Shown piece after piece: positions 35,126-36,856 of a stretch of 64,000 bases of DNA. Under the pieces are notes generated by a model that had not been told where the DNA came from, did no database searches, and worked only from the letters and a program-made list of their open reading frames with translations. Each line of letters begins with the position of its first letter. Position 1 is the stretch's first letter. Made by a program: the position numbers and the translations under genes. This DNA comes from Alphaproteobacteria bacterium (GTDB lineage: Bacteria > Pseudomonadota > Alphaproteobacteria > JAJFIK01): contig JANQLJ010000133.1 of assembly GCA_028280665.1 (NCBI GenBank), forward strand, positions 9,901 to 73,900, given 5' to 3'.

Positions 35126-36856
35126 TTGAATCGTCGCCCTAATCCGGCGTTAAACCCCTCCGGTACAAAATGTAGTCGGTGCGCAATGGGGGTAACGTGT
35201 CTGAGAGAGGGCGCTGTGTACAAGTTTTTTGCAGGAATGCTGGATGGGCTGAAACGCTTCTGGAAAGCCACCGGAGGCAACACCGCGATGATCTTTGGGT
35301 TATCGCTCATCCCCCTTGTTGTTTCGACAGGCGCGGCGATCGATGCCTCGCGCGCCTTGATCGTGCGGGCGCGCCTTGCCGAAGCGCTCGATGCCGCGGG
35401 ACTGGCCGTGGGCGGCGCGACGGAACTAAGCGAAGAAGATATGGAACAACTCGCGCAGGACTTCTTCGACGCCAATTACCCAGAAGATGCTCTGGGTGTT
35501 GTGGGAACGCTTAACTTCTCGATCACGAACGAAGTCATTACCATGAGCGCGACGGCCAACGTGCCGACCAGCATTTTGCAGATCGTCCACATCGATAGCG
35601 TCGATGTGGGCGTGAGTAATCAGATCACGCGCGAATCCACGGGCCTTGAAGTGGCACTGGTGCTCGACAATACGGGGTCCATGGCGTCCAACAATAAAAT
35701 CGGTGCCCTGCGCACGGCGGCAACGGACCTCATTAACATTCTGTTTGGAGATGACCCGAACCCGCCCCAGGTGCGCGGATCCCTGGTGCCCTTTGTCACG
35801 GGCGTCAATATCATGGCGGACAGCAGTTTCGACATGAGTTGGATCGATGTCGATGCGGAAGCCGAGCACCATGGCGAGAATTTCGACCTGGAAGCCGGCC
35901 AGCGCGTCAGCCATCTGGATCTCTTCGACCGCATCGGCAATGCGCAATGGCGGGGCTGTGTGGAGATGCGCGCGGCGCCTTACGACGTGCTCGATACGCC
36001 CCCCAGCGCGGGCAATCCCGACACCTTGTTCGTACCTTACTTCTGGCCCGACGAGCCCGACAACAATTGGCGCTACAATAACGACTATCTGAACGACAAC
36101 ATCAGCTCCGGCGGTGGCGGGGACGACGATGACGACGATGATGATGACGATGAAGATGGTGGCGGCGGCGGCGGCGGCGGCGGCGGCGGCGGTGGTGGTG
36201 GCGGTGGCGGCAGCCTCTCCGACGCAGAAATCCAGAGAAACCTCGACAAATATGACGGCAGCAACGCGGACATTGATGAAGTGCCGCAATATACCCGCGG
36301 CCCGAACATGAGTTGCCCGGACCCGTTGGTCCCCCTGACCAATGACCGCGATCATCTGCTTGCCGAGATCGGTAACATGGAGCCCTGGCAATATTCAGGG
36401 ACCAATATCGCCCATGGCCTTTCCTGGGGCTGGCGCGTGCTTTCGCCCGGCGAGCCGTTTACCGAAGGCGCCGCCTATAACGACCCCACGACACAGAAAG
36501 CGCTTATTCTGCTGACGGACGGCGTGAACACGCTTTGCTGTCAGAGCTCTTCGCATAACCGGTCGGACTATGGCGGCTACGGTTATGTGGCCATGAACCG
36601 GCTCGGCACCACGAGCCCCTGGGTGGGCCCGCAAGTGGTGAATGACCGGGTGGCGGAGCTGTGCGAAAACGTCAAGGCGGAAGGTATTCGGCTCTACACC
36701 ATTACCTTCCAGGTGAACAATTCGACCCTTTCGGACCTGTTCCGCAATTGCGCCACCTCGCCTGACCTCTACTTCAACTCGCCGTCGAACGCGGACCTGC
36801 AGAACGTCTTCGTCACGATCGGCCGCGATCTGTCGAACCTGCGCCTGAGCCAATAA
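35126..36856 (+). CDS. TadG-like pseudopilin with von Willebrand factor A domain; putative tip adhesin
   Basis: TadE/G-like N-segment GGNTAMIFGLSLIPLVVSTGAAIDASR. vWA MIDAS-like LVLDNTGSM and LTDGVNT. Internal D12-G18 low-complexity linker. Start ambiguous (35126, 35186 or 35240). Confidence 0.7.
   Translation: MNRRPNPALNPSGTKCSRCAMGVTCLREGAVYKFFAGMLDGLKRFWKATGGNTAMIFGLSLIPLVVSTGAAIDASRALIVRARLAEALDAAGLAVGGATELSEEDMEQLAQDFFDANYPEDALGVVGTLNFSITNEVITMSATANVPTSILQIVHIDSVDVGVSNQITRESTGLEVALVLDNTGSMASNNKIGALRTAATDLINILFGDDPNPPQVRGSLVPFVTGVNIMADSSFDMSWIDVDAEAEHHGENFDLEAGQRVSHLDLFDRIGNAQWRGCVEMRAAPYDVLDTPPSAGNPDTLFVPYFWPDEPDNNWRYNNDYLNDNISSGGGGDDDDDDDDDDEDGGGGGGGGGGGGGGGGGGSLSDAEIQRNLDKYDGSNADIDEVPQYTRGPNMSCPDPLVPLTNDRDHLLAEIGNMEPWQYSGTNIAHGLSWGWRVLSPGEPFTEGAAYNDPTTQKALILLTDGVNTLCCQSSSHNRSDYGGYGYVAMNRLGTTSPWVGPQVVNDRVAELCENVKAEGIRLYTITFQVNNSTLSDLFRNCATSPDLYFNSPSNADLQNVFVTIGRDLSNLRLSQ
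36110..36211 (+). repeat. in-frame trinucleotide tract (GAY)12 followed by (GGY)18 including perfect (GGC)10 at 36161-36190, encoding GGGG-DDDDDDDDDDED-G18
   Basis: Read directly: ggcggtggcggg gacgacgatgacgacgatgatgatgacgatgaagat ggtggcggcggcggcggcggcggcggcggcggcggtggtggtggcggtggcggc. Confidence 0.85.

Follow-up and report, generated by a model that had tools for sequence, protein, structure and literature searches.

A probable slippage-born Asp/Gly expansion in the variable loop of a TadG/CpaL-type minor pilin

Position of the Asp/Gly tract in a split vWA domain

The closest described counterpart of the protein studied here is CpaL of Caulobacter crescentus, a TadG orthologue in which a pilin-like module is followed by a domain of the von Willebrand factor A (vWA) type, which is split by an insert after strand beta2. 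CpaL's metal-ion-dependent adhesion site, or MIDAS, is made up of D160, T162, S164, T470 and D515, and the protein is predicted to reside at the pilus tip together with CpaJ and CpaK (PMC12607857). In the Gram-positive pilus-tip adhesins RrgA, GBS104 and SpaC, the inserted arms of the vWA domain are its most variable part and are thought to set ligand specificity (PMC7893114). Here, we analysed a TadG-like gene on a 64,000-nucleotide stretch of the alphaproteobacterial contig JANQLJ010000133.1, which we refer to as the window. The gene contains an in-frame trinucleotide tract encoding consecutive glycine and aspartate residues at positions 36110-36211 of the + strand. We consider this tract to be, probably, a lineage-specific low-complexity expansion that arose in frame by replication slippage. 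It affects the loop that is the chief hypervariable one in a minor pilin of the TadG/CpaL type.

The original prediction, made from the letters of the window, had described the gene product as a TadG adhesin of the pseudopilin kind with a vWA domain. Pfam profiles, the neighbouring genes and structure matches bear out a TadG-like pseudopilin with a vWA domain, encoded in a tad locus. Judged by its sequence, the protein belongs to the TadG/CpaL-type vWA minor pilins of Tad (type IVc) pili: it has a hydrophobic pilin-like N-terminal segment, a complete MIDAS (DxS/TxS/T, T, D) and a split vWA domain, and its gene lies in a tad/cpa locus. When set against the published description of CpaL, the two share the pilin-like N-terminal module, the DxTxS...T...D arrangement of the MIDAS and the cpa/tad locus, and the two vWA segments cover residues 148-203 and 384-626 in CpaL and residues 136-186 and 365-539 in the tract-bearing protein. 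The five best solved-structure matches of our model are Mfa5, SpaC, RrgA, PilB and GBS104; the first four are also the published structural analogues of CpaL, whereas GBS104 is not among them. The two proteins differ in the insert itself, which is described as two six-stranded beta-barrels in CpaL, while our model shows ordered coil for the most part, along with short helices; no low-complexity loop has been described for CpaL.

To place the tract, we used an AlphaFold2 model built from 121 aligned family members, with a mean predicted local distance difference test score (pLDDT) of 90 and a predicted template modelling score (pTM) of 0.79. Residues are numbered for the 539-aa form that begins with the ATG at 35237. 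The pilin-like module (residues 1-131, 35237-35629, + strand), delimited from PF13400 and the model, begins with a long N-terminal hydrophobic helix (H12-60), after which a small beta sheet is formed; PF13400, the TadE/G-like N-terminal segment, matches residues 14-59 with 24.5 bits against a cut-off of 22.3. The first part of the vWA domain, beta1-alpha1-beta2 (residues 136-186, 35642-35794, + strand), is supported by the model and by VWA_2, positions 1-54 of which match residues 139-195, and it carries the MIDAS residues D144-x-T146-x-S148. It is followed by the beta2-beta3 insertion, 178 residues in length according to the alignment and the model (residues 187-364, 35795-36328, + strand), and its position agrees with that of the beta-rich insert reported for CpaL (PMC12607857). 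The second part (residues 365-539, 36329-36853, + strand) contributes MIDAS residues T389 and D428; here it is the end of the Pfam vWA profile (positions 116-171 of 174) that matches, at residues 469-524.

The order of elements in the model is beta1 (136-144), alpha1 (147-170), beta2 (179-186), the insertion (187-364), beta3 (365-368), alpha2, T389, alpha3, beta4 (419-427) and D428, after which alpha4, beta5, alpha5, beta6 and alpha6 lead to the C-terminus, so that beta3 through alpha6 span residues 365-536. Across the 121 aligned sequences there is no variation at D144, T146, G147, S148, T389, D428 and G429, a set that includes each of the five MIDAS residues. The insertion is confidently modelled except for the tract: residues 292-322 form the only segment of the protein with a pLDDT below 50, and the tract is thus predicted to be disordered. 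According to the model, then, the protein has a single, split vWA domain, and the tract forms a loop within the beta2-beta3 insertion of that domain.

This placement differs from the anatomy that had been proposed before, in which a pilin-like N-domain and a vWA domain were followed by the tract and then by a separate C-terminal domain. The 'C-terminal domain' is the second half of the split vWA domain, because both the end of the vWA profile and beta3-alpha6 with T389 and D428 follow the tract. The expectation that structure prediction might reveal a disordered linker therefore stood as far as disorder is concerned, but not with regard to an interdomain linker, since one vWA fold lies on both sides of the tract. 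A flexible acidic hinge between the vWA domain and a separate C-terminal domain would fit the predicted disorder and the glycine runs, which are typical of linkers. It is contradicted by the position of beta3-alpha6 of the same vWA domain downstream of the tract, and homologues with a loop of nine residues share the same domain architecture, so that we give such a hinge hardly any credence.

Two further features of this region deserve mention. Four cysteine residues, C241 (35957-35959), C360 (36314-36316), C476 (36662-36664) and C505 (36749-36751), are invariant in the 121 sequences; C241 and C360 lie in the insertion, bracket its tract-bearing part and may form a disulfide. The insertion also holds the conserved motif YFWPDEPD...YNNxYLxD (36038-36097) just before the loop. 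This motif is acidic and nearly invariant and might represent a second metal site.

At the nucleotide level, the tract is 102 nt long, corresponding to 34 codons, and shares its frame with the open reading frame (ORF) 35126-36856, as was originally reported. Its translation is G4-D10-E-D-G18. The four leading glycine residues (residues 292-295) are encoded by GGC GGT GGC GGG at 36110-36121 (+ strand) and had been left out of the earlier label 'D12-G18', the G18 part of which is correct. The acidic run that follows (residues 296-307, 36122-36157, + strand) reads GAC GAC GAT GAC GAC GAT GAT GAT GAC GAT GAA GAT; it does comprise 12 acidic codons, as claimed, but is not a pure Asp run or a (GAY)12, given that 11 GAY codons (5 GAC and 6 GAT) are joined by one GAA and the repeat is interrupted. 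G18 (residues 308-325, 36158-36211, + strand) is encoded by GGT (GGC)10 GGT GGT GGT GGC GGT GGC GGC and includes the perfect (GGC)10 at 36161-36190 (+ strand) that the original prediction had singled out. Homopolymeric Asp followed by homopolymeric Gly had also been called unusual, and for the family it is: the longest single-residue runs in the corresponding loop of the 120 best homologues are 7 for Gly and 5 for Asp.

Tandem Repeats Finder reported both the Asp-coding and the Gly-coding part. None of 100 dinucleotide-preserving shuffles contained a (GGC)10 site, even when as many as 3 mismatches were tolerated, or a (GAY)10 site, for which as many as 2 were tolerated, and on this basis a chance origin was dismissed; the D/G tract is not due to chance. 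(GGC)10 is the only perfect trinucleotide run of at least 5 units in the 64-kb window and the sole good slippage substrate within the tract, whereas the GAY part is a poor one since its interruptions leave no perfect run longer than 3 copies. Low-complexity loops of other lineages use mixed codons, with perfect runs of just 2-5 units. By comparison, (GGC)10 is exceptional for its purity and, judged from the sequences, seems to be of recent origin or to be active still. Folded as single-stranded DNA, the tract did not differ from shuffled sequences (z = -1.65) and thus gave no evidence of a special DNA structure, and a promoter scan detected no sigma-70-like site in or around the tract that would indicate an internal promoter.

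Low-complexity stretches may also be collapsed, expanded or invented during sequencing and assembly. G+C-rich low-complexity repeats are error-prone, and the frame-shifting indels that we describe below for the loop of one related lineage, that of P0112, may be sequencing errors. The tract in the window, however, keeps the reading frame exactly; homologues align base-for-base with the sequence on either side of it; 13 internal codon variants serve as unique landmarks; its 102 nt are below common read lengths; and a Gly-rich loop of 30-35 residues is present independently, at the same position, in sister lineages. An artefact is accordingly very improbable.

The antisense strand of the tract reads as poly-Pro and poly-Ser. 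An ORF of 85 aa with the composition P18-S12-P4 is present there (36085-36342, - strand), as had been stated, and exists in a mechanical sense. We rejected it as a gene, given that it lies inside a strongly conserved + strand gene with 1682 homologues and is a mechanical by-product of the repeat; both antisense ORFs that we examined were dismissed as genes.

Variation of the tract loop across the family

To see how the tract-bearing region varies among relatives, we relied on a protein search, which returned the 1682 homologues at E<=1e-10 (the best one being 75% identical), and on an exhaustive profile search, which returned 5481 50%-identity representatives at E<=1e-30. Homologues named for Pyruvatibacter, Tepidamorphus and Rhodobiaceae are 45-52% identical, which points to an alphaproteobacterium as the probable source, and several database homologues are named 'Flp pilus assembly protein TadG' or 'TadG-related'; NCBIfam has no family for the tract-bearing gene. 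Loop lengths and residue runs were determined in the 120 best homologues. The tract is placed between the conserved motifs YFWPDEPD..YNNxYLxD and RQ..KY, and the loop that they delimit, between D287 and Q333, has 45 residues in the window protein compared with a median of 9, with exactly 9 residues in 66 of the 120 homologues. No other segment between conserved anchors varies as much in length: the standard deviation of the loop is 8.6 residues, whereas that of most segments is below 1. A further stretch of variable length in the family is bounded by N216 and W238 (residues 217-237, 35885-35948), with a standard deviation of 7.8 and a length of up to 58 residues; in many representatives of 600-690 aa, roughly 100 additional residues immediately precede profile position ~228.

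The loop differs among lineages in composition as well as in length. It is rich in G, R and W in P0001 (GGGGGGGRGRGRGRGGWGGGWGGG) and P0112 (GGGGGRGRWGGWGGWGGG), in G and K in P0147 (GGGDGGGGKGKKKKGGGGGGG), in G and W in P0237 (GGWGWGWGWGGGG) and P0149, and in RG in P0220 (RSRGRGRRGRG) and P0186. Acidic loops are present in P0214 (DDEEEEGGDDEDDEDEDDGDDDDENGD), P0184 (GDDDSDDDDSDEDE) and P0060 (DEDDGWGDSDDDD) as well as in P0059 and P0005, and Cys-bracketed mini-loops in P0211 and P0256. In P0152 and P0167, about 340 aa of tandem modules of ~57 residues each are found at the position of the tract loop; these are 5-6 modules of the form GDGPxxV..TGTLPxGL..T.YWVI....F.LATS..NA, at residues ~325-675 of P0152 and ~335-600 of P0167. 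The relatives closest to the window protein have a basic loop, with (RG)4 in P0001 and RRDRRR in P0002, and the window protein itself carries a net charge of -14 across the 45 loop residues, 12 of them consecutive acidic residues. As far as the sequences tell, a charged core flanked by glycine is a recurring design at this loop, and the charge may be negative or positive.

These data bear on the question of whether the acidic run has a function of its own. The poly-Asp segment could bind Ca2+ or Mg2+, a mineral or cationic surfaces at the end of a poly-Gly tether, or it could fold back as an intramolecular acidic pseudo-ligand of the MIDAS metal and gate ligand binding. Fully extended, a lash of 34 residues could reach ~100 Å. 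In line with such a module, all point variation within the Asp run keeps an acidic residue, and acidic low-complexity loops occur at this site in independent lineages (P0214, P0184, P0059/P0060 and P0005). The topology of the vWA fold also places the exit of a beta2-beta3 insert at the MIDAS face. In addition, the inserted arms of Gram-positive tip pilins such as RrgA and GBS104 flank the MIDAS, form a trench with it and are the most variable part of the domain (PMC7893114), and low-complexity acidic clusters have been linked to the coordination of Ca, Mg and Zn (PMC6821194). On the other hand, the closest relatives are basic at the loop, as the (RG)4 of P0001 and the RRDRRR of P0002 illustrate, and most family members have only nine residues there, so that an acidic function is not conserved; the insert of CpaL is, moreover, described as pointing away from the MIDAS (PMC12607857). 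Taken together, we regard a dedicated acidic module as quite doubtful.

Indels, constraint and the proposed origin of the tract

If the loop is the main site of length change in the family, close relatives would be expected to differ there. Between P0001 and P0121, which belong to one 90%-identity cluster and share 93% identity, the sole length difference is one of 3+1 codons in the loop. When the window was aligned with the related sequences L006-L009, the gene showed one large gap block, which is the tract, with flanks that align base-for-base. Likewise, in the P0112 lineage, represented by 4 strains with 95-97% nucleotide identity, all but one of the internal indels are located in the loop. 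In L002 (2370-2480), L003, L004 and L005, the same G+C-rich loop DNA is read as G/W/R or as A/V, and compensating indels that are not multiples of 3 restore the frame; in L005, a further +1 G breaks the gene up, leaving two products of 397 and 144 aa. Of the 4 contigs of the P0112 lineage, 3 also have the upstream TadG-like paralogue in split form. The frame differences in this lineage are due either to genuine hopping between frames in a loop that tolerates it or to errors of long-read sequencing.

Point substitutions indicate that the loop is not simply free to drift. Between L008 and L009, the loop has 12 synonymous and 0 nonsynonymous codon differences, compared with 195 and 32 in the rest of the gene, a difference that is not significant in this small sample (Fisher p = 0.38). 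Judged from these counts, the loop of the sister lineage gives no sign of weaker constraint than the fold. Within the tract of the window, a conservative count yields at least 9 independent point changes, all at third codon positions, and the Gly or acidic character of each residue is kept. Under a uniform-site model, such a third-position-only pattern has a probability of (1/3)^9, or ~5e-5, a figure that ignores transition bias and the copying of variant units by slippage.

An alternative idea is that (GGC)10 is an adaptive contingency tract, kept for frequent in-frame changes in the length of the Gly tether that would give a population of adhesin variants and allow graded tuning of reach or avoidance. 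As a perfect repeat, (GGC)10 has no equal in the 64 kb, in-frame indels of 3+1 codons occur in the same loop of sister proteins that are 93% identical, and the gene encodes a surface appendage protein, a class for which repeat-driven variation is typical (reviewed in PMC4534519). Against this idea, no same-species sequence that could show polymorphism of this allele was found in the collections searched, and a change of one or two residues in G18 should barely affect a floppy loop of 34 residues. In other lineages, furthermore, low-complexity loops persist although their codons have decayed and are no longer slippery, so that retention of the loop does not depend on mutability. We consider selection for mutability unlikely, albeit worth entertaining.

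What we favour instead, with reasonable confidence, is the lineage-specific expansion by slippage that we proposed at the outset, and the following course of events would account for the tract. A Gly-rich loop encoded by (GGY)n would already have been present in the clade, as the sister lineage, which is 73-75% identical, has a G/R/W-rich loop at this position. A G-to-A change at the second codon position would have converted GGC to GAC, and both units would then have been amplified by replication slippage. The Asp part would since have gained third-position changes that leave it a poor slippage substrate, while (GGC)10 may still gain or lose units of 3 nt. As the original prediction rightly pointed out, a unit of 3 nt in frame means that slippage alters the length of the protein only and does not switch the gene ON or OFF. 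The product would be a disordered, strongly acidic lash of 12 acidic residues on Gly tethers, located on a permissive, outward-facing and probably ligand-facing site of the adhesin head, where it would most likely modulate the surface charge, cation loading, reach or sterics of the vWA head.

Several observations weigh against the proposed slippage history or its supposed consequences. Ten units are a modest number, and strong hypermutability is not known for trinucleotide tracts of such a length in bacteria; the sister-lineage loops that do show indels are not perfect repeats. The protein, genome and metagenome collections yielded no sequence of the same species in which length polymorphism of this allele could have been observed: a search of metagenome contigs with the protein minus the tract retrieved sister lineages at 73-79% identity and no same-species contig, and among the matches listed for the full protein in genome contigs there was only an unrelated Ruegeria protein of 24% identity. 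The third-position pattern could stem in part from C/T transition bias or from variant units copied by slippage. In the assemblies of the P0112 lineage, the contig names and the split neighbouring genes point to error-prone long reads, so sequencing error may explain some of the variation in that lineage. Finally, the CpaL insert is described as projecting away from the MIDAS, and even for CpaL the location at the pilus tip is a predicted one (PMC12607857).

If one were to go beyond slippage-born expansion, the loop from YNNxYLxD to RQ..KY could be viewed as the specificity-determining display site of pilus-tip adhesins of the TadG/CpaL type. Poly-Asp would then serve as a cation-loaded lash to mineral or polyanionic surfaces, or as a pseudo-ligand of the MIDAS that is displaced by force or by a ligand, and its reach would be tuned in 3-nt steps by (GGC)10. 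We offer this combination as a long shot.

Genomic context and comparison with known systems

The gene is encoded on the + strand and extends from 35216 or 35237 to 36856, which corresponds to 546 aa from the GTG at 35216 or 539 aa from the ATG at 35237. GTG 35216 is probably the start codon, since it is preceded by the Shine-Dalgarno-like sequence GAGAGAGGG at 35203-35211 and agrees with the N-terminus of the closest homologue, MWKFF...; ATG 35237 is an alternative, and the TTG at 35126 is unlikely. The N-terminus of the protein reads G-G-N-T-A-M-I-F, with no Glu at +5. Approximately 95 nt past the stop codon, a strong hairpin that resembles an intrinsic terminator is found at 36952-36979 (+ strand), in which GGGCUCCC-CGCG-GGGAGCCC is followed by UUUUUGUU. 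It has an 8-bp G+C stem, a CGCG loop and a U-run, with a fold energy of -25.8 kcal/mol (z = -6.5), and was not listed by a scan for consensus terminators.

By their sequences, the neighbouring genes make up a complete tad/cpa locus. Upstream are a TadE-like gene (31983-32429, + strand), another TadG-like gene, which encodes Tad N-terminal and Tad_C domains (32434-33744, + strand), and two further TadE-like genes (33920-34459 and 34456-35013, both - strand). Downstream, a gene for a protein with a pilus-formation N-terminal region (37026-37511, - strand) is followed by those for the Flp pilin (37882-38058, + strand), a prepilin peptidase (38212-38715, + strand), CpaB (38884-39705), the secretin CpaC (39702-41132), CpaD (41068-41835), a CpaE/TadZ-like ATPase (41844-43187), the CpaF ATPase (43189-44646), TadB/TadC (44652-45641 and 45584-46633) and a tetratricopeptide repeat protein (46715-47605, - strand). 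The product of the second TadG-like gene gave a weak right-handed beta-helix match and has no vWA domain, so that two large minor pilins of different kinds are encoded in the locus. Directly adjoining the minor-pilin genes on their upstream side is a gene for a 901-aa protein (29080-31785, - strand), for which only weak matches of the coiled-coil type were obtained (SMC-like, the FlgK helical domain and fibrinogen alpha).

Elsewhere in the window, we noted a bacterial small signal recognition particle RNA at 58158-58253 (+ strand), with 62 bits against a gathering score of 40. It falls inside the mechanical ORF 57310-60141, and there is probably no gene over that stretch. An AT-skew spike of +0.225 at 52001-54000 is unrelated to the tract and is explained by two minus-strand ATP-binding cassette permease genes (BPD_transp_1), the T-rich hydrophobic codons of which make the + strand A-rich.

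In-frame repeat expansions in surface proteins and low-complexity Gly regions encoded by GGC are already well known (PMC6821194), and the D/G tract is an extreme case for its family but a mechanistically ordinary repeat expansion. Of greater use is its position, which marks the main variable loop of the vWA head in a large family: this one loop absorbs most of the length variation and recurrently gains Gly-flanked charged segments or tandem domains. The sequence comparisons suggest that the loop is likely to be the variable, ligand-facing part of the TadG/CpaL proteins of Tad pili. With respect to the binding partners of these proteins and their role in mechanosensing, the loop offers a concrete site for swap or deletion work, for instance in Caulobacter CpaL. 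In the literature that we searched, low-complexity or Gly-rich loops were not connected with TadG or CpaL in any paper.

Among known systems outside the Tad family, the D-repeat of human asporin offers a likeness. It is an in-frame GAY run that encodes ~12-14 Asp residues, is extracellular, varies in length by trinucleotides and binds calcium. Asporin is eukaryotic, its repeat is N-terminal and its fold is unrelated, so the resemblance may be taken as an analogy only. Within bacteria, Gly runs encoded by GGC are the commonest type of low-complexity region, and Asp is uncommon in such regions, at ~6% on average (PMC6821194). The tract also resembles the in-frame simple sequence repeat variation that slipped-strand mispairing causes in bacterial surface proteins (reviewed in PMC4534519), in that it contains a perfect short repeat with a unit that is a multiple of 3; unlike at proven loci of this kind, variation in its repeat number is a candidate property, suggested by the sequence. 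The comparison with RrgA, GBS104 and SpaC concerns the site of variation. The arms of those proteins are folded, being beta-hairpin or helical, and belong to sortase-assembled pili, whereas the tract forms a homopolymer loop that is predicted to be disordered, and the pilin that carries it is of the type IVc (Tad) class and belongs to a Gram-negative organism. What they have in common is a vWA head with a lineage-specific insertion, at a tip position that is known for RrgA, GBS104 and SpaC and predicted here.

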